DNA of 64,000 nt, taken from Escherichia coli. GTDB lineage: Bacteria > Pseudomonadota > Gammaproteobacteria > Enterobacterales > Enterobacteriaceae. The position numbers were made by a program, and so were the translations under genes. The notes beneath the pieces were generated by a model, which was not told the origin of the DNA, did not search any database, and saw nothing but the letters and a program-made list of their open reading frames with translations. Location of the stretch: assembly GCF_003334305.1 (NCBI RefSeq), contig NZ_QOWS01000010.1; one strand, given 5' to 3'. Numbering within the stretch: the first letter of the stretch is position 1; each line of letters starts with the position of its first letter. Shown piece by piece: positions 17,583 through 43,213 of this stretch.

Positions 17583-18947
17583 ATGAACGATTATAAAATG
17601 ACGCCAGGTGAGAGGCGCGCGACCTGGGGTTTAGGGACCGTATTCTCGTTGCGCATGCTGGGCATGTTTATGGTTCTGCCGGTTCTGACCACGTACGGCA
17701 TGGCTCTGCAAGGTGCCAGCGAAGCATTAATCGGTATTGCCATTGGTATTTATGGTCTGACTCAGGCCGTTTTTCAGATTCCGTTTGGCCTGCTTTCCGA
17801 CCGCATTGGTCGCAAACCATTAATTGTCGGTGGGCTGGCGGTGTTTGCCGCCGGTAGCGTTATCGCTGCGCTTTCCGACTCCATCTGGGGAATTATTCTG
17901 GGCCGGGCGCTACAAGGCTCTGGAGCAATTGCCGCCGCCGTTATGGCGCTGCTTTCCGATCTCACGCGCGAACAAAACCGCACCAAAGCGATGGCGTTTA
18001 TCGGCGTGAGCTTTGGCATTACCTTTGCTATTGCGATGGTGCTTGGCCCGATCATCACTCACAAACTTGGGCTGCACGCGCTGTTCTGGATGATCGCTAT
18101 TCTGGCAACGACCGGCATTGCGTTGACCATTTGGGTTGTGCCCAACAGTAGCACTCACGTACTTAATCGTGAGTCCGGAATGGTGAAAGGCAGTTTCAGT
18201 AAAGTGCTGGCGGAACCGCGGCTGCTGAAACTCAACTTTGGCATTATGTGTCTGCATATTTTGCTGATGTCGACGTTTGTTGCCCTGCCCGGACAACTGG
18301 CTGATGCAGGGTTCCCGGCGGCTGAACACTGGAAGGTCTATCTGGCGACAATGCTAATCGCCTTTGGCTCGGTCGTGCCTTTCATTATCTACGCTGAAGT
18401 TAAGCGCAAAATGAAGCAAGTCTTTGTCTTCTGCGTCGGGTTGATCGTGGTTGCGGAAATTGTGTTGTGGAACGCGCAAACGCAGTTCTGGCAACTGGTG
18501 GTCGGCGTGCAGCTTTTCTTTGTGGCGTTTAATTTGATGGAAGCCCTCCTGCCCTCACTTATCAGTAAAGAGTCGCCAGCAGGTTACAAAGGTACGGCGA
18601 TGGGTGTTTACTCCACCAGCCAGTTTCTTGGCGTGGCGATTGGCGGTTCGCTGGGCGGCTGGATTGACGGCATGTTTGACGGTCAGGGGGTATTTCTCGC
18701 TGGCGCAATGCTGGCCGCAGTGTGGCTGACAGTCGCCAGTACCATGAAAGAACCGCCGTATGTCAGCAGTTTGCGCATTGAAATCCCGGCGAACATTGCC
18801 GCAAACGAGGCGTTAAAAGTGCGTTTGCTAGAAACTGAAGGCATCAAAGAAGTGTTGATTGCAGAAGAAGAACATTCAGCTTATGTGAAAATCGACAGCA
18901 AAGTGACGAATCGCTTTGAGATAGAACAGGCAATTCGTCAGGCATAA
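17583..18947 (+). CDS. yajR: MFS transporter YajR
   Basis: Start at MNDYKMTPGERRATWGLGTVFSLRMLGMFMVLPVL (454 aa); ORF-track frame begins 2 codons earlier at GTG. Confidence 0.95.
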   Translation: MNDYKMTPGERRATWGLGTVFSLRMLGMFMVLPVLTTYGMALQGASEALIGIAIGIYGLTQAVFQIPFGLLSDRIGRKPLIVGGLAVFAAGSVIAALSDSIWGIILGRALQGSGAIAAAVMALLSDLTREQNRTKAMAFIGVSFGITFAIAMVLGPIITHKLGLHALFWMIAILATTGIALTIWVVPNSSTHVLNRESGMVKGSFSKVLAEPRLLKLNFGIMCLHILLMSTFVALPGQLADAGFPAAEHWKVYLATMLIAFGSVVPFIIYAEVKRKMKQVFVFCVGLIVVAEIVLWNAQTQFWQLVVGVQLFFVAFNLMEALLPSLISKESPAGYKGTAMGVYSTSQFLGVAIGGSLGGWIDGMFDGQGVFLAGAMLAAVWLTVASTMKEPPYVSSLRIEIPANIAANEALKVRLLETEGIKEVLIAEEEHSAYVKIDSKVTNRFEIEQAIRQA

Positions 18948-18961
18948 AAAACGCGGCGAAT

Positions 18962-19050
18962 TGCCTGCTGCGCTACGCTTATCAGGCCTACAAAGTTTCT
19001 GAATTACAAACCTTTGTAGGCCGAATCAGGCGTTCATGCCGCATCTGACA
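18962..19050. repeat. REP/BIME element (two inverted REP units)
   Basis: GCCTGCTGCGCTACGCTTATCAGGCCTAC ... GTAGGCCGAATCAGGCGTTCATGCCGCATCTGAC between yajR and yajQ stops. Confidence 0.7.
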
Positions 19051-19566: not shown

Positions 19567-19733
19567 CTTTTCCTCTCCCTTCATTTTTGATGCGAAGCAT
19601 AATACCTGCAAAGTTAAATAACCAACAGTCCTGCACCAGGACGTATCCCTTAATTGTGCATAGTCGCAACAGCATGCACAATTAAGGGATAGCCTTATTG
19701 AACACCCGGAGTGGTTGCGGGTGAGGAGGAACA

Positions 19734-21251: not shown

Positions 21252-22700
21252 TTACGGGCGATATACCTTCACATTGTTAAAGCCCTGCTCGCGCAGATAG
21301 AGCGCCTGCAGACGGCTCATCACCCCGCGCTCACACCACAGTAGCCAGGTTCTGTTCTGGTCGAGATCGCCAAACTTGGTGCTCAGTTTATAGAACGGCA
21401 GAGAAACTACATCAATCCCTTCGACTTTCAGTGGCTTATCTTCCTGTTCATCGATAGAACGGATATCGAGGATCACGTCGTTCGGGCCGAAGCCATTGAC
21501 GGTTTCCACTTCCACCACTTCCTGCTCGGTCTGCTGGGCGATTTCGCGGATATCAACGTTATTCGCTTCTTCAACCACTTTATCGAGAATGCTGAAGTCG
21601 AATTTCTCTTCTTCCGCTTCAATCTTCGACTTAACCGCTTTCACCGTCGGGCTTTTGGAGATAACACCGCAATATTCCGGCATCGTGCGAGCAAAGTCTT
21701 CGGTGCCAATCTGGCGAGCCAGGTTGATGATGTGCTCTTTGTCGTAAGAAATCAGCGGACGCAGGATCAGCGTATCGGAGACGTTATCAATCAGGCGCAG
21801 GTTGGTCAGCGTCTGACTGGACACCTGGCCGAGCGCTTCGCCGGTGACCAGCGCCTGTACGCCGTAACGTTCAGCCACTTTAGACGCGGCACGCACCATC
21901 ATACGTTTGAGGATAACGCCCATCTGACCGTCGTCGATTTTCTCGAGAATTTCCCCGACGACCGGTTCGAAATTAATAGCGACAAAACGCACGCGGTGGG
22001 AGCTGCCAAAACGGTTCCACAGATAATGCGCCACCTGACGCACGCCAATTTCATGCGCCGCGCCGCCAAGGTTAAAGAAACAGTAATGCACGCGGCAGCC
22101 GCGACGCATCAACATATAACTGGAAACACCGGAGTCGAAACCACCGGAAATGAGCGACAGCACATCTTCCTGGGTGCCGATCGGGAAACCGCCAATACCT
22201 TCGTAGCGGCCTTTAATCAGCAGGAGACGATCGTCTTCCACTTCCAGATGGACAGTCACTTCCGGATTGGTCAGCTTCACGCGCGCGGACTCAATATGCT
22301 GATTTAAACCGCCGCCGACGTAACGTTCCACATCAATCGAGCTAAAATCATGTTTGCCACGGCGCTTCACGCGTACGCAGAAGGTTTTGCCTTCCAGCTG
22401 ATCGCGATACTGAACCAACGCTTTCTCAAAAATATCGTGCATGTCGGTAAACGGCACGTCTTCGACTTCGAGAATATGGTGGATACCCGGAATACGGGTC
22501 AGGGCGTCGCGAATAGCCAGACGCTGGTTTTCATCTTTTGCGCGAACTTCGATGTTATCCCAGTGGCGGACGACAGCGAGCGTCTCATCATAGTGCTTTA
22601 AAACGTTACGAATGTTCCCGGTAAGGATTTTTATAAAGCGCAAGCGCACAGATTGGCTTTTGATGGTGATTTCCGGGAACAATTTAATGATAAACTTCAT
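21252..22700 (-). CDS. thiI: tRNA 4-thiouridine synthase / sulfur carrier ThiI
   Basis: 482-aa [57 protein letters not shown]...; PP-loop SGGFDS. Confidence 0.98.
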
Positions 22701-22905
22701 GGCGGCAATGGTTCGTTGGCAAGCCTTAAGCGACTTGTATAGGGAAAAATACAGCAGCCCACACCTGCGGCTGCATCCAGGCGCGGAAGTATACCACTAA
22801 CATCGCTTTGCTGCGCACATCACCTTACCATTGCGCGTTATTTGCTATTTGCCCTGAGTCCGTTACCATGACGGGGCGAAAAATATTGAGAGTCAGACAT
22901 TCATT

Positions 22906-23148
22906 ATGCCGAAGAAAAATGAGGCTCCCGCCAGCTTTGAAAAGGCGCTGAGCGAGCTGGAACAGATTGTAACCCGTCTGGAAAGTGGCGACCTGCCGCT
23001 GGAAGAGGCGCTGAACGAGTTCGAACGCGGCGTGCAGCTGGCACGTCAGGGGCAGGCCAAATTACAACAAGCCGAACAGCGCGTACAAATTCTGCTGTCT
23101 GACAATGAAGACGCCTCTCTAACCCCTTTTACACCGGACAATGAGTAA
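22906..23148 (+). CDS. xseB: Exodeoxyribonuclease VII small subunit
   Basis: 80-aa [67 protein letters not shown]. Confidence 0.97.
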
Positions 23149-24047
23149 TGGACTTTCCGCAGCAACTCGAAGCCTGCGTTAAGCAGGCCAACCAGGCGCT
23201 GAGCCGTTTTATCGCCCCACTGCCCTTTCAGAACACTCCCGTGGTCGAAACCATGCAGTATGGCGCATTATTAGGTGGTAAGCGCCTGCGACCTTTTCTG
23301 GTTTATGCCACCGGTCATATGTTCGGCGTTAGCACAAACACGCTGGACGCACCCGCTGCCGCCGTAGAGTGTATCCACGCTTACTCATTAATTCATGATG
23401 ATTTACCGGCGATGGATGATGACGATCTGCGTCGCGGTTTGCCGACCTGCCATGTGAAGTTTGGCGAAGCAAACGCGATTCTCGCTGGCGACGCTTTACA
23501 AACGCTGGCGTTCTCGATTCTAAGCGATGCTGATATGCCGGAAGTGTCGGATCGCGACAGAATTTCGATGATTTCTGAACTGGCGAGCGCCAGCGGTATT
23601 GCCGGAATGTGCGGTGGTCAGGCATTAGATTTAGACGCGGAAGGCAAACACGTACCTCTGGACGCGCTTGAGCGTATTCATCGTCATAAAACCGGCGCAT
23701 TGATTCGCGCCGCCGTTCGCCTTGGTGCATTAAGCGCCGGAGATAAAGGGCGTCGTGCTCTGCCAGTACTCGACAAGTACGCAGAGAGCATCGGCCTTGC
23801 CTTCCAGGTTCAGGATGACATCCTGGATGTGGTAGGAGATACTGCAACGTTGGGAAAACGCCAGGGTGCCGACCAGCAACTTGGTAAAAGTACCTACCCT
23901 GCACTTCTGGGTCTTGAGCAAGCCCGGAAGAAAGCCCGGGATCTGATCGACGATGCCCGCCAGTCGCTGAAACAACTGGCTGAACAATCACTCGATACCT
24001 CGGCACTGGAAGCGCTAGCGGACTACATCATCCAGCGTAATAAATAA
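23148..24047 (+). CDS. ispA: Farnesyl diphosphate synthase
   Basis: 299-aa ORF with DDxxD motifs (LIHDDLPAMDDDDLRRG; FQVQDDILD); ATG overlaps xseB stop. Confidence 0.98.
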   Translation: MDFPQQLEACVKQANQALSRFIAPLPFQNTPVVETMQYGALLGGKRLRPFLVYATGHMFGVSTNTLDAPAAAVECIHAYSLIHDDLPAMDDDDLRRGLPTCHVKFGEANAILAGDALQTLAFSILSDADMPEVSDRDRISMISELASASGIAGMCGGQALDLDAEGKHVPLDALERIHRHKTGALIRAAVRLGALSAGDKGRRALPVLDKYAESIGLAFQVQDDILDVVGDTATLGKRQGADQQLGKSTYPALLGLEQARKKARDLIDDARQSLKQLAEQSLDTSALEALADYIIQRNK

Positions 24048-24071
24048 ACAATAAGTATTAATAGGCCCCTG

Positions 24072-25934
24072 ATGAGTTTTGATATTGCCAAATACCCGAC
24101 CCTGGCACTGGTCGACTCCACCCAGGAGTTACGACTGTTGCCGAAAGAGAGTTTACCGAAACTCTGCGACGAACTGCGCCGCTATTTACTCGACAGCGTG
24201 AGCCGTTCCAGCGGGCACTTCGCCTCCGGGCTGGGCACGGTCGAACTGACCGTGGCGCTGCACTATGTCTACAACACCCCGTTTGACCAATTGATTTGGG
24301 ATGTGGGGCATCAGGCTTATCCGCATAAAATTTTGACCGGACGCCGCGACAAAATCGGCACCATCCGTCAGAAAGGCGGCCTGCACCCGTTCCCGTGGCG
24401 CGGCGAAAGCGAATATGACGTATTAAGCGTCGGGCATTCATCAACCTCCATCAGTGCCGGAATTGGTATTGCGGTTGCTGCCGAGAAAGAAGGCAAAAAT
24501 CGCCGCACCGTCTGTGTCATTGGCGATGGCGCGATTACCGCTGGCATGGCGTTTGAAGCGATGAATCACGCGGGCGATATCCGTCCTGATATGCTGGTGG
24601 TCCTCAACGACAATGAAATGTCGATTTCCGAAAATGTCGGCGCGCTCAATAACCATCTGGCACAGCTGCTTTCCGGTAAGCTTTACTCTTCGCTGCGCGA
24701 AGGCGGGAAAAAAGTTTTCTCTGGCGTTCCGCCCATTAAAGAGCTGCTCAAACGTACCGAAGAACATATTAAAGGCATGGTAGTGCCTGGCACGTTGTTT
24801 GAAGAGCTGGGCTTTAACTACATCGGCCCGGTTGACGGTCACGATGTGCTGGGGCTTATCACCACGCTGAAGAACATGCGCGACCTGAAAGGCCCGCAGT
24901 TCCTGCATATCATGACCAAAAAAGGTCGTGGTTATGAACCGGCAGAAAAAGACCCCATCACTTTCCACGCCGTGCCTAAATTTGATCCCTCCAGCGGTTG
25001 TTTGCCGAAAAGTAGCGGCGGTTTGCCGAGCTATTCAAAAATCTTTGGCGACTGGTTGTGCGAAACGGCAGCGAAAGACAACAAGCTGATGGCGATTACT
25101 CCGGCGATGCGTGAAGGTTCCGGCATGGTCGAGTTTTCACGTAAATTCCCGGATCGTTACTTCGACGTGGCAATCGCCGAGCAACACGCGGTGACCTTTG
25201 CCGCCGGTCTGGCGATTGGTGGGTACAAACCCATTGTCGCGATTTACTCCACTTTCCTGCAACGCGCCTATGATCAGGTGCTGCATGACGTGGCGATTCA
25301 AAAGCTCCCGGTCCTGTTCGCCATCGACCGCGCGGGCATTGTTGGTGCTGACGGTCAAACCCATCAGGGCGCTTTTGACCTCTCTTACCTGCGCTGTATA
25401 CCGGAAATGGTCATTATGACCCCGAGCGATGAAAACGAATGTCGCCAGATGCTCTATACCGGCTATCACTATAACGACGGCCCGTCCGCGGTGCGCTACC
25501 CGCGCGGTAACGCGGTTGGCGTGGAACTGACGCCGCTGGAAAAACTGCCAATTGGCAAAGGCATTGTGAAGCGTCGTGGCGAGAAACTGGCGATCCTTAA
25601 CTTTGGTACGCTGATGCCAGACGCGGCGAAAGTCGCTGAATCGCTGAACGCTACGCTGGTCGATATGCGTTTTGTGAAACCGCTTGATGAAGCGTTAATT
25701 CTGGAAATGGCCGCCAGCCATGAAGCGCTGGTCACCGTAGAAGAAAACGCCATTATGGGCGGCGCAGGCAGCGGCGTGAACGAAGTGCTAATGGCCCATC
25801 GTAAACCAGTACCCGTGCTGAACATTGGCCTGCCTGACTTCTTTATTCCACAAGGAACTCAGGAAGAAATGCGCGCCGAACTCGGCCTCGATGCCGCCGG
25901 TATGGAAGCCAAAATCAAGGCCTGGCTGGCATAA
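24072..25934 (+). CDS. dxs: 1-deoxy-D-xylulose-5-phosphate synthase
   Basis: 620-aa [58 protein letters not shown]; TPP-dependent transketolase-like. Confidence 0.98.
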
Positions 25935-25988
25935 TCCCTACTCCACTCCTGCTATGCTTAAGAAATTATTCATGGCAGGAGTGGCAGC

Positions 25989-26963
25989 ATGCAATACAAC
26001 CCCTTAGGAAAAACCGACCTTCGCGTTTCCCGACTTTGCCTCGGCTGTATGACCTTTGGCGAGCCAGATCGTGGTAATCACGCATGGACACTGCCGGAAG
26101 AGAGTAGCCGTCCCATCATTAAACGCGCGCTGGAAGGCGGCATAAATTTCTTTGATACCGCCAATAGCTATTCCGATGGCAGCAGCGAAGAGATCGTTGG
26201 TCGCGCACTGCGGGATTTCGCCCGTCGTGAAGACGTGGTCGTTGCCACCAAAGTGTTCCATCGCGTTGGTGATTTACCGGAAGGATTATCCCGTGCACAA
26301 ATTTTGCGCTCTATCGACGGCAGCCTGCGACGTCTCGGCATGGATTATGTCGATATCCTGCAAATTCATCGCTGGGATTACAACACGCCGATCGAAGAGA
26401 CGCTGGAAGCTCTGAACGACGTGGTAAAAGCCGGGAAAGCGCGTTATATCGGCGCGTCATCCATGCACGCTTCGCAGTTTGCTCAGGCCCTGAAGCTACA
26501 AAAACAGCACGGCTGGGCGCAGTTTGTCAGTATGCAGGATCACTACAATCTGATTTATCGCGAAGAAGAGCGCGAGATGCTGCCACTGTGTTATCAGGAG
26601 GGCGTGGCGGTGATTCCGTGGAGCCCGCTGGCGCGGGGGCGACTGACGCGTCCGTGGGGAGAAACTACCGCACGACTGGTGTCTGATGAGGTGGGGAAAA
26701 ATCTCTATAAAGAAAGCGATGAAAATGACGCGCAGATCGCAGAGCGGTTAACGGGCGTCAGTGAAGAACTCGGTGCAACACGAGCACAAGTTGCGCTGGC
26801 CTGGTTGTTGAGTAAACCGGGCATTGCCGCACCGATTATCGGTACATCGCGGGAAGAACAGCTTGATGAGCTATTGAACGCGGTGGATATCACTTTGAAG
26901 CCGGAACAGATTGCCGAACTGGAAACGCCGTATAAACCGCATCCGGTAGTAGGATTTAAATAA
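25989..26963 (+). CDS. yajO: Aldo-keto reductase YajO
   Basis: 324-aa ORF MQYNPLGKTDLRVSRLCLGCMTFGEPDRGNHAWTLPEESSRPIIKRALEGGINFFDTANSYSDG. Confidence 0.97.
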   Translation: MQYNPLGKTDLRVSRLCLGCMTFGEPDRGNHAWTLPEESSRPIIKRALEGGINFFDTANSYSDGSSEEIVGRALRDFARREDVVVATKVFHRVGDLPEGLSRAQILRSIDGSLRRLGMDYVDILQIHRWDYNTPIEETLEALNDVVKAGKARYIGASSMHASQFAQALKLQKQHGWAQFVSMQDHYNLIYREEEREMLPLCYQEGVAVIPWSPLARGRLTRPWGETTARLVSDEVGKNLYKESDENDAQIAERLTGVSEELGATRAQVALAWLLSKPGIAAPIIGTSREEQLDELLNAVDITLKPEQIAELETPYKPHPVVGFK

Positions 26964-26968
26964 GAGTC

Positions 26969-27008
26969 CAGGCCTGATGAGACGCAACAAGCGTCACATC
27001 AGGCATCG
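26969..27008. repeat. REP-like palindromic element
   Basis: GCCTGATGAGACGC...GCGTCACATCAGGC between the convergent yajO and pgpA stops. Confidence 0.6.
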
Positions 27009-27016
27009 GTGCACAA

Positions 27017-27535
27017 CTACGACAGAATGCCCAGCGGCCAGTGATGACCAATAAAGTACAGGATGCCAGCGGAGATCACCCCGGCGACAATATCATCTAT
27101 CATGATCCCCATGCCGCCATGCACATTGCGATCAAACCAGCGGATCGGCCACGGTTTCCACATATCCAGAATACGGAAAATCACAAACCCGGCGGCAACC
27201 CACTGCCAGTCATTGGTCGGCAGCGCCATGAGCGTGATCCACATACCAATAAATTCGTCCCAGACAATGCTGCCGTGATCGTGCACGCCCATATCTTTTG
27301 CGGTCTGATGACAAAGATAGACGCCGATACAGATCCCCAGCATCACCACCAGCGAGTAGAGCTGCCAGGGCAAAAAGGTCATCAGATACCAGAACGGAAT
27401 CGCTGCCAGCGAGCCCATCGTCCCAGGAACGATCGGGCTTAATCCACTTCCGAATCCGACAGCAAGCAGATGCCACGGATTACTCATCTTCAGGCGACTT
27501 TTCGCGACATCTTTATGGCGTGGCAAAATGGTCAT
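27017..27535 (-). CDS. pgpA: Phosphatidylglycerophosphatase A
   Basis: Start at [34 protein letters not shown] (172 aa) within the 184-aa ORF-track frame. Confidence 0.92.
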
Positions 27536-32995: not shown

Positions 32996-33003
32996 TTATG
33001 AAA

Positions 33004-33030
33004 ATGCCGGGATTTATTCCCGGCATTTCA
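33004..33030 (+). terminator. Rho-independent terminator downstream of tsx
   Basis: AATGCCGGGA-TTTATT-CCCGGCATTT hairpin 9 bp after tsx stop. Confidence 0.6.
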
Positions 33031-43138: not shown

Positions 43139-43213
43139 CAATTCCTAACCCATCAACACAATAAAAAACCACGGGGCATCGCAGCCCCGTGGTTAAAACA
43201 AATGTTCAGTGAT

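Follow-up and report, generated by a model that had tools for sequence, protein, structure and literature searches.

The window analysed here, a 64,000-nucleotide (64-kb) stretch of Escherichia coli DNA, contains the genes dxs and yajO, which are adjacent and co-oriented and lie 54 nt apart; all genes, arms and promoters described below are on the plus strand unless stated otherwise. The coding sequence of dxs runs from 24072 to 25934 and ends in the stop codon TAA at 25932-25934, as placed by the ORF list and by RefSeq annotation of E. coli sequences identical to it; its product carries out the first step in the synthesis of isoprenoid precursors, a step that controls flux. yajO (25989-26963, ATG at 25989-25991) encodes an aldo/keto reductase, for which RefSeq uses the name '1-deoxyxylulose-5-phosphate synthase YajO'. 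An earlier note on this DNA had drawn attention to a perfect 10-bp inverted repeat in the spacer between the two genes and proposed that it hides the Shine-Dalgarno (SD) sequence of yajO in dxs read-through transcripts. The arms are as described, with CCACTCCTGC (25943-25952) being the exact reverse complement of GCAGGAGTGG (25975-25984) and 22 nt between them, and the AGGAG of yajO (25977-25981) does lie inside the 3' arm, with a gap of 7 nt to the ATG. The repeat is also longer than first described, as an inverted-repeat search returned 19-nt arms with 84% complementarity.

Folding the spacer as RNA (RNAfold) bears out the predicted stem, which is also kept in a 201-nt context. The hairpin occupies positions 25941-25987 and is built on a 16-bp stem in which the 5' arm, or anti-SD strand (25941-25956), pairs with the 3' arm (25971-25987) with one bulged C and one G-U pair; the two halves of the repeat form the perfect core of the arms. 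A 3-bp apical stem sits on top of it (the hairpin is elsewhere counted as 16+2 bp), and the apical region and loop (25957-25970) are AU-rich and vary in sequence and length between species. The minimum free energy is -28.1 kcal/mol with an ensemble frequency of 62% and z = -5.93, none of 200 shuffled sequences folds equally well, and AGGAG is wholly paired (P(unpaired) = 0.000). The hairpin occurs once per genome and is not a member of a dispersed ERIC/REP family. An Rfam scan of 22500-27500 (E <= 1) gave no match on it; the sole hit in that interval was a weak naRNA4/REP-like match downstream of yajO. A simple promoter/terminator scan also returned nothing at the hairpin site, where the -35 hexamer and T-run that such a scan needs are both absent.

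A single perfect repeat of this kind says little by itself. The window has 26 k-mer hits, or 14 distinct hairpins, for perfect 10-mer inverted repeats whose loops span 3-40 nt, and about 3.6 hits (3.6 +/- 2.0) are expected per 64 kb in first-order Markov simulations, so that a functionless chance repeat has to be considered. Taken alone, one such repeat is not significant, and the reality of the hairpin rests on its conservation. Given a folding z of -5.9, conservation and covariation in 76 species and mapped RNA ends that fall on the hairpin, the chance explanation is effectively refuted.

Conservation was examined in 76 Enterobacteriaceae spacers, with pair counts taken over 69 distinct sequences and column identities over 81 sequences; a search for protein homologues brought up close relatives only. 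A hairpin is predicted in 76/76 spacers with stabilities of -19 to -35 kcal/mol, and each pair of an 11-bp core is formed in 59-69 of the 69 distinct sequences. Two outer pairs covary (alignment columns 12-64: CG 47, UA 10, UG 8; columns 14-62: GU 29, GC 27, AU 8, UA 2). Over a 13-bp helix, pairing reaches 91.8% and falls to 29-55% when the partner is slid by 1-3 columns. The seven pairs at the core, between CTCCTGC and GCAGGAG, show little or no variation; across the 76 spacers the GGAG within GCAGGAG never changes and the full heptamer almost never does. Such mutual invariance is the outcome expected from selection for pairing with the SD. These observations confirm that the inverted repeat is a real RNA hairpin which buries the yajO SD and which is conserved across the Enterobacteriaceae.

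Pairing is not the whole explanation for what is conserved. Within the 5' arm a 16-nt block, CTCCTGCTATGCTTAA, is almost invariant, while neighbouring synonymous (third codon) sites are 59-68% identical. The segment TATGCTTAA is invariant despite a variable pairing partner, with pairs 23-25 being unpaired in 31-40 of the 69 sequences. RNA pairing accounts for only half of the block, and the other half, GCTATGCTTAA (25951-25961), is a match to the extended -10 element of sigma-S promoters. Its columns are each 91-100% identical (81 sequences) vs. 59-68% at the flanking third codon positions. We also considered and rejected a mini-ORF that opens with the ATG at 25955 and has 17 codons in the window and 4-7 in other genera, as it has no SD, its third positions are invariant and it lies upstream of the start of this promoter.

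GCTATGCTTAA agrees at 11/11 positions, including C at -13, with KCTAYRCTTAA, the sigma-S extended -10 consensus of Weber et al. (2005) as quoted in later papers. This is the single match to that consensus in the 64-kb window, where 0.21 are expected. The candidate promoter, referred to here as P2, has TG at 25950-25951, C at -13 at 25952 and the hexamer TATGCT at 25953-25958 followed by TAA, and it has no usable -35 element. A start for it has been mapped in K-12, an allele in which an ERIC element fills the hairpin loop: the Class I transcription start site (TSS) 'RVS_(I)-437510, 437509-437510' (U00096.2), or 438285-438286 in NC_000913.3, falls 5-6 nt past the P2 hexamer and inside the loop (Romero 2014, supplement). 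By coordinate mapping, this corresponds to A25963/A25964 in the window. The distance of 5-6 nt is under the usual 7. In principle, the 5' end could alternatively arise by processing within the AU-rich loop, yet it is Class I in differential RNA-seq. In exponentially growing K-12 the sRNA ecr0419, 158 nt long, begins at the same position and ends at the start of yajO, so P2 transcripts can also be shortened.

Expression data from Salmonella are consistent with the use of sigma-S. In RNA-seq, yajO had 439 reads in the wild type vs. 45 in an rpoS mutant (0.10-fold, padj 1.3e-13), and YajO protein was also reduced in the mutant. This dependence is separate from that of the upstream genes, which were called unchanged (wild type vs. 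mutant: dxs 104 vs. 152, ispA 123 vs. 123, xseB 15 vs. 13). Peano 2015 lists yajO as sigma-S-dependent, citing Weber 2005. The E-sigma-S ChIP peak assigned to yajO in that work (437329-437469 in U00096.2; 438105-438245 in.3 coordinates) ends 46 bp before reaching the P2 hexamer; its centre lies on a K-12-specific antisense promoter, which it fits better. A chemostat study of E. coli (Franchini 2015) was dropped as support for sigma-S, as its yajO value of 3.7 sits in the column for cAMP dependence and not RpoS. Most likely, the 5' arm of the hairpin carries a sigma-S promoter whose transcripts, beginning in the loop, are free of the SD block.

It could be argued that the repeat is a feature of the DNA, either a bidirectional promoter with mirror -10 elements or the operator of a dimeric regulator, and that RNA pairing is incidental. 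On the opposite strand, the mirror sequence TGcTATACT is indeed active in K-12 (Class I antisense TSS 438162), and FliZ has been reported to bind sequences resembling sigma-S extended -10 elements. The antisense -10 is not conserved, however: hexamer position 2 is paired with its opposite base in only 29/69 sequences, the window itself reads CCTGCCATGAAT, and the mirror -10 is retained in a minority of species, by which we discarded a conserved antisense promoter. A dimeric-operator palindrome was likewise discarded, because the spacing between the arms ranges from 22 to about 40 nt between species, and the covarying pairs fall outside the promoter core. Overall, a purely DNA-level role is very improbable.

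The two roles would have different consequences depending on where a transcript begins. In the window, opening the SD (AGGAGU) is calculated to cost 17.4 kcal/mol in read-through RNA, and 4.2 kcal/mol in RNA from P2. The same contrast is seen over the 76 species (medians of 16.3 kcal/mol for read-through RNA vs. 2.9 for P2 RNA) and in K-12 with its ERIC (16.2 vs. 2.7 kcal/mol). Sequestration of the SD, as proposed in the earlier note, is thus upheld by the cost of opening it in read-through RNA, which is 12.5-20.2 kcal/mol across 76/76 species, and by the compensatory changes in the stem.

A second candidate promoter, P1, was also considered. It consists of an extended -10, TGgCATAAT, at 25927-25935 that overlaps the dxs stop codon, and transcription from it would begin on the second base of the 5' arm, T25942. 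The yajO primer used to clone the 'entire 5' UTR' in Adams et al. (2021), the one source for this start position, begins TCCACTCC, which corresponds to K-12 438307 and to window 25942. It should be noted that this primer points to a 5' end further upstream, in RNA with an SD that would stay masked, and this counts against the explanation that we prefer. SD opening would cost 17.3 kcal/mol in P1 RNA from the window and 16.9 kcal/mol in that from K-12. One may therefore suppose that yajO mRNA comes from P1 and carries a 5'-terminal hairpin that stabilizes and silences it until opened by RNase III, an sRNA or temperature. Besides the primer, the geometry of TGgCATAAT is correct for a start at T25942, only three of the p19-captured RNase III dsRNA clusters in coding genes are more abundant than that of the K-12 locus, and there are precedents in RNase III cleavage at adhE and sRNA action at rpoS. 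On the other hand, the P1 9-mer is found in only 24/80 species while the hairpin and the P2 motif are universal, the table of Romero 2014 has no TSS at the P1 start position, and P1 lacks sigma-S features, as its -13 position is G instead of C and its discriminator is rich in GC. The stem is also short for RNase III, with 16+2 imperfect pairs against a substrate criterion of >= 20 bp (about two helical turns), and the K-12 dsRNA cluster is explained by an ERIC hairpin and an antisense RNA from 438162, of which the window has neither. We consider a P1-borne, conditionally opened message to be quite unlikely. The single mention of 'yajO' in a study of RNase III sites (Gordon 2017) is by context a slip for yajQ and was discarded.

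The ERIC element deserves separate comment. An ERIC of about 125 bp fills the loop of the hairpin in 52% of complete E. coli genomes, K-12 MG1655 among them; comparison with E. coli genomes places the insertion site at 25973-25974 in the window, where it is empty, as it also is in CFT073. The K-12-type ERIC at this site is a typical member of the ERIC (IRU) repeats: it matches the ERIC2 primer at 21/22 positions, it is flanked by a TA duplication, and genomes contain about 6 places each that match (median). The arms of the hairpin are locus-specific flanks and not part of the ERIC. With the insertion, the K-12 allele forms a much longer helix than the window hairpin and yields abundant p19-captured dsRNA. 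ERIC in the loop would produce a mirror-image version of the promoter and drive antisense RNA. In favour of the promoter reading, the -10-plus-7 rule had already pointed to 438162 as the antisense start in K-12, and a published Class I TSS then turned out to lie at exactly that position. What has been recorded here in K-12, namely the antisense RNA, the dsRNA cluster and ecr0419, is shaped by an element that is missing from about half of E. coli genomes. A different insertion is seen in strain O177:H21, in which an IS10-like element, with a 9-bp duplication (GGCCTGGCT), interrupts the final codons of dxs, outside the hairpin.

The fate of read-through RNA is informed by published transcript-end data, which come from K-12, with its ERIC within the hairpin, or from Salmonella; the window represents an ERIC-free allele of E. 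coli. The dominant K-12 Term-seq 3' end, at 438135 with a read count of 38352, is the A of the yajO ATG, 2 nt beyond the last paired base (Adams et al., 2021); its equivalent in the window is 25989. This end has a Rho score of 2.89 and an intrinsic-terminator score of 1.03, below the threshold of 3.0 (Adams et al., 2021). As the earlier note had argued, the structure is not an intrinsic terminator: it is followed by GGCAGCAUGCAAUACAAC rather than a U-run, and the terminator scan is empty at the site. A significant Rho termination region lies at 438058, about 77 nt into yajO (window ~26066), BCM-dependent read-through past the 3' end at the hairpin base is seen in K-12, and a lacZ fusion containing the hairpin rises >2-fold in rhoR66S (Adams et al., 2021). 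The 3' end at the stem base, its Rho score and the rhoR66S effect also support the earlier proposal that the hairpin acts on dxs read-through RNA. A Rho-linked 3' end at the start of yajO is the polarity signature expected of an untranslated start.

These same data could be read more simply, with the hairpin being only a 3'-end structure of dxs mRNA, a barrier to exonucleases after Rho termination, and its overlap with the SD a side effect of the short spacer. The dominant Term-seq end 2 nt past the stem, the Rho dependence of the termination region and a stem that is stable in every species all suit such a role. A pure cap need not take in both the SD and the promoter in 76/76 species, however, the mutual invariance of CTCCTGC and GCAGGAG fits selection for SD pairing, and Rho termination right at the start of the ORF is best explained by blocked translation. 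As the whole story a cap is unlikely, but as one step it is compatible with the dual-use model set out below.

We regard it as likely that the spacer holds a dual-use element by which the SD is masked in read-through RNA and free in RNA from the sigma-S promoter. Computed here were the hairpin with its conservation and covariation, the invariant promoter motif and the energetic contrast between transcripts; the TSS, sigma-S dependence, 3' end and Rho dependence are taken from published data. As DNA, GCTATGCTTAA would supply the extended -10 for a yajO promoter that depends on sigma-S and starts at A25963/A25964. As RNA, CTCCTGC and its flanks in xseB-ispA-dxs read-through transcripts would pair with GCAGGAG and its flanks, including the yajO SD, and in the model ribosomes would not load on yajO. 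The untranslated RNA would be subject to Rho termination in the first ~80 nt of yajO, with the block to translation being the probable trigger, and would then be trimmed back to the hairpin, which may cap the 3' end of the dxs message. RNA from the sigma-S promoter would lack the 5' arm; its leader would be 25-26 nt long and its SD open, and this RNA would be translated. In this way yajO would no longer follow the dxs operon, which is constitutive and essential, and would instead be linked to stationary phase and stress.

Such a design is already known from phage T4 gene e, and here it would occur in a chromosomal operon. In T4 gene e, soc, 49 and I-TevI a late promoter lies within the DNA for the 5' strand of a hairpin that sequesters the ribosome-binding site (McPheeters et al., 1986; review PMC3014915). 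At yajO, too, the SD lies in the stem, there is a promoter in the DNA of the 5' strand, and upstream transcripts run through the hairpin (the last from K-12 literature data). By analogy, the yajO SD would be masked like that of the long, upstream-started T4 RNA, in which SD and AUG are hidden and translation is poor, and both systems place an alternative-sigma promoter in the region of the 5' strand, giving a short RNA without that strand that is well translated in T4. They differ in that the yajO element lies at a chromosomal operon junction and uses host sigma-S, whereas T4 is a phage that uses gp55, and in that the yajO read-through RNA is additionally Rho-terminated and hairpin-capped, with a block to yajO translation that we infer. 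A related strategy is the fold-back inhibition of the IS10 and IS50 transposases, reportedly described by Davis, Simons and Kleckner in 1985 and by Schulz and Reznikoff in 1991, in which upstream sequence in external transcripts is said to pair with the ribosome-binding site. Native transcripts reportedly start downstream of the pairing sequence, and the purpose is said to be the shielding of the mobile element from outside promoters. At dxs-yajO, in contrast, two cellular genes of one operon-like array are insulated from each other. With respect to known sigma-S promoters, as represented by the quoted consensus of Weber et al. (2005), P2 shares a perfect motif, C at -13, TAA after the hexamer, the lack of a -35 and rpoS-dependent expression (in Salmonella), but its bases -19 to -13 would, judging from the sequence, double as the anti-SD in read-through RNA. 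The locus also resembles other members of the set of E. coli 5' UTRs and ORF starts with premature Rho termination in Adams et al. (2021), in which yajO is listed, as it is BCM- and rhoR66S-sensitive, terminates early in yajO and has a processed 3' end at a stable structure. No mechanism is given for yajO in that study; the one proposed here is SD masking that is specific to read-through RNA.

Taken together, we lean towards a joint reading in which the invariant 16-nt block is at once a -10 element in DNA and an anti-SD in RNA, yajO is translated only from its stress promoter, dxs read-through is converted into Rho-terminated, hairpin-capped ends, the whole is a family-wide chromosomal counterpart of T4 gene e, and the mirror promoter created by ERIC launches antisense RNA. 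Such an element would explain how adjacent genes can follow separate programmes, with dxs serving growth and yajO serving stationary phase and stress. It offers a mechanism for the Rho-dependent Term-seq 3' end at the start of yajO, which was reported without explanation, and is a compact case of one sequence constrained as both DNA and RNA. If true, it may represent a general means of insulating internal promoters in operons.

On the + strand of the window, xseB, ispA, dxs and yajO are all found, and many E. coli chromosomes carry the identical sequence with the same four genes annotated. A spacer of 54 nt separates the dxs stop codon (25932-25934, + strand) from the yajO start (25989, + strand), and an earlier note had drawn attention to a 10-bp inverted repeat within it. 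Indeed, CCACTCCTGC (25943-25952) is the perfect reverse complement of GCAGGAGTGG (25975-25984), the 3' arm holding the AGGAG (25977-25981) of the yajO Shine-Dalgarno sequence (SD). The stem forms when the spacer RNA is folded and exceeds the noted 10 bp, pairing 25941-25956 with 25971-25987 through 16 pairs plus 2 beyond a bulged C, including 1 G-U pair, topped by a 3-bp apical stem (RNAfold). Its minimum free energy is -28.1 kcal/mol (z = -5.93; 0/200 shuffles fold equally well), and it is kept in a 201-nt context. As the note also held, this is not an intrinsic terminator, with no U-run downstream of the stem and none called at the site by a terminator scan. The hairpin has no family match in an Rfam scan, and its identity as a REP or ERIC element was rejected. 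A perfect 10-mer inverted repeat alone is too common for significance (26 k-mer hits and 14 hairpins in the 64-kb window, with approximately 3.6 expected), therefore the reality of the hairpin rests on cross-species comparison. Other perfect inverted repeats of at least 10 nt lie at 19644-19691 (perfect 18-nt arms, TATCCCTTAATTGTGCAT...), 18927-18967, 18985-19022, 14701-14759, 33002-33028 and 43167-43194. Just past the yajO stop (26971-27032, - strand) lies a probable REP-type element, a weak, sub-threshold match to Rfam naRNA4 (30.3 bits; gathering score, 59.5). Two database proteins 94-97% identical to YajO but far longer than its 324 aa (P0001, 559 aa; P0002, 385 aa) are probably gene-call or assembly fusions.

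Scanning one genome per species gave 80 Enterobacteriaceae loci in which yajO immediately follows dxs, and those spacers free of large insertions (75 species and the window) formed a 76-sequence alignment, A1. All 76 are predicted to form a hairpin, with energies of -19 to -35 kcal/mol. The seven central pairs, CTCCTGC/GCAGGAG, show nearly no change across species, the outer pairs covary through compensatory changes (pair 12-64: CG 47, UA 10, UG 8; pair 14-62: GU 29, GC 27, AU 8, UA 2), and the loop shows free variation in sequence as well as length. Overall pairing is 91.8%, and shifting the 3' partner by 1-3 columns lowers it to 29-55%. Across 81 sequences, each column of the 16-nt block CTCCTGCTATGCTTAA has 91-100% identity; at third codon positions, identity is only 59% for the last 30 dxs codons and 68% for the first 31 yajO codons. 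Within the alignment TATGCTTAA is invariant despite a varying would-be partner, pairs 23-25 being unpaired in 31-40 of 69 sequences, and is therefore constrained as sequence rather than structure.

The 5' arm also carries a proposed sigma-S promoter, P2. Here GCTATGCTTAA (25951-25961) is a perfect match, including the C at -13 and the TAA past the hexamer, to KCTAYRCTTAA, the extended -10 consensus of sigma-S-dependent promoters (Weber, 2005, as quoted by other papers), and is the sole match in the 64-kb window (0.21 expected). The spacer holds no -35-like hexamer for P2, which is usual in this promoter class. The invariance of the block suggests that the promoter fixes TGC and the SD fixes GGAG, while selection for pairing fixes the complement of each. 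For published start sites we take the offset from U00096.2 to NC_000913.3 to be 776 nt, from the U00096.2 coordinates of dxs and ffs set against the NC_000913.3 annotation. In differential RNA-seq of K-12, a Class I transcription start site (TSS) in the yajO orientation was placed at U00096.2 positions 437509-437510 (Romero et al., 2014), hence 438285-438286 in NC_000913.3, or A25963/A25964 of the window. This lies within the loop, 5-6 nt beyond TATGCT and thus 1-2 nt nearer the hexamer than usual, and was measured on an allele carrying an ERIC repeat, the window allele being ERIC-free. The 158-nt RNA ecr0419 has its 5' end at the same position and its 3' end at the yajO start. In a Salmonella Typhimurium rpoS mutant, yajO mRNA is down 10-fold (439 vs. 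45 reads, padj 1.3e-13) with dxs, ispA and xseB unchanged, and YajO protein is also lower; the locus in this species has no ERIC. Peano et al. (2015) include yajO among sigma-S-dependent genes, with reference to Weber (2005), and report a ChIP-seq peak of E-sigma-S here that ends 46 bp short of the P2 hexamer. One chemostat study found yajO to be cAMP-dependent and did not report RpoS dependence.

The energy needed to open AGGAGU varies strongly with the transcript start. For dxs read-through RNA of the window it is 17.4 kcal/mol, in line with the SD sequestration that the note had predicted for such transcripts, and for P2 RNA it is 4.2 kcal/mol; across the 76 species the medians are 16.3 (range 12.5-20.2) and 2.9 (0.4-7.8) kcal/mol, respectively. 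The P2 RNA modeled starts at 25965, a start predicted before the published TSS was found. A further yajO 5' end, at 438307 (window 25942), is implied by the cloning primer of Adams et al. (2021); a plausible extended -10 for it, TGgCATAAT, overlaps the dxs stop. This candidate promoter, P1, is present in only 24/80 species, and the Romero list has no TSS at 438307. RNA from 25942 would keep the SD masked (modeled cost 17.3 kcal/mol). In the K-12 allele with ERIC the costs are 16.2 (read-through), 16.9 (P1) and 2.7 kcal/mol (P2). The hairpin, its conservation, the promoter motif and this energetic contrast are established by the present analysis.

The fate of read-through RNA can be followed in Term-seq and lacZ fusion data from K-12, which has the ERIC-filled allele. 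The dominant 3' end falls on the first base of the yajO start codon (the A at 438135; Adams et al., 2021), 2 nt past the last paired base of the hairpin, and has a Rho score of 2.89 and an intrinsic-terminator score of only 1.03. A significant Rho termination region lies approximately 77 nt into yajO, and a lacZ fusion starting at TCCACTCC, with the whole hairpin included, is up more than 2-fold in rhoR66S (Adams et al., 2021). Together, the 3' end and the Rho data bear the mark of polarity acting on an ORF that is not translated, with the RNA then trimmed to a stable stem; Adams et al. (2021) place yajO among Rho-attenuated genes and give no mechanism. The stretch from the dxs stop to the 5' arm (25935-25942; the equivalent 9-25 nt in loci L004-L083) is pyrimidine-rich in every genus, e.g., CCCTCCCCTTTCC, varying between genera in sequence and length, and may contribute to a Rho loading site or just be the -35 region of a promoter without a -35 element.

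The ERIC repeat (approximately 125 bp; 21/22 positions of its core match the ERIC2 primer) occurs in 2844/5426 complete E. coli genomes (52%), including MG1655. It lies within the hairpin, immediately 5' to the 3' arm, between ...TTCATA and GCAGGAG (empty site at window 25973-25974; ERICs or remnants at 426-550 of L001, in L002, at 438150-438274 of MG1655 (L084), and in L005, L031, L032, L041 and L039). Around the inserted ERIC the arms remain paired, forming the base of its hairpin (-80.4 kcal/mol, z = -9.4). A longer form with a nested insert of approximately 66 bp is found in some E. coli strains and E. albertii. ERICs or remnants lie at nearly the same position in Phytobacter and Kosakonia sp. 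S29, adjoining the 3' arm at almost the same nucleotide, and in one Enterobacteriaceae MAG (L039, termini only). This shared position may reflect either several insertions targeted to the same TA or a single ancient insertion that was precisely lost many times. In E. coli O177:H21 (L003 175-1510), an IS10-like element (annotated ISVsa5 family) lies in the last dxs codons with a 9-bp duplication, GGCCTGGCT, and splits dxs from an intact hairpin and yajO.

In K-12, the opposite strand of the 3' arm and ERIC end reads CCTGCTATACT, a mirror copy of the promoter, with the antisense -10 of ERIC-filled alleles, TGcTATACT (L084 241-263, + strand of the record; NC_000913.3 438140-438162), and a predicted start at 438162. 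A Class I antisense TSS at 437386 in U00096.2 (Romero et al., 2014) converts to exactly this position, and the p19 dsRNA cluster S-43 begins 7 nt after it. This start accounts for antisense RNA at the K-12 locus and for S-43, a very abundant RNase III dsRNA cluster (Huang et al., 2020), and probably explains the position of the ChIP peak. An antisense 3' end within the dxs 3' end, at NC_000913.3 438373 (approximately window 25876; Adams et al., 2021), is presumably that of the ERIC-junction RNA. The window reads CCTGCCATGAAT instead and lacks the antisense promoter.

The TSS, rpoS dependence, 3' end and Rho dependence are published K-12 or Salmonella observations; the translational block by the hairpin and its causal link to Rho are inferred. 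The arrangement resembles that of phage T4 genes e, soc, 49 and I-TevI, where a late promoter lies within the DNA for the 5' strand of a helix masking the ribosome-binding site, and the fold-back inhibition of read-through transcripts in IS10 and IS50; we found no literature description of it for yajO. In dxs read-through transcripts the yajO SD would be masked, leaving yajO untranslated and Rho-terminated, and the RNA would end at the hairpin, which would cap the dxs message. Sigma-S-initiated transcripts would begin in the loop, without the anti-SD strand, and be translated. This arrangement is readily testable.
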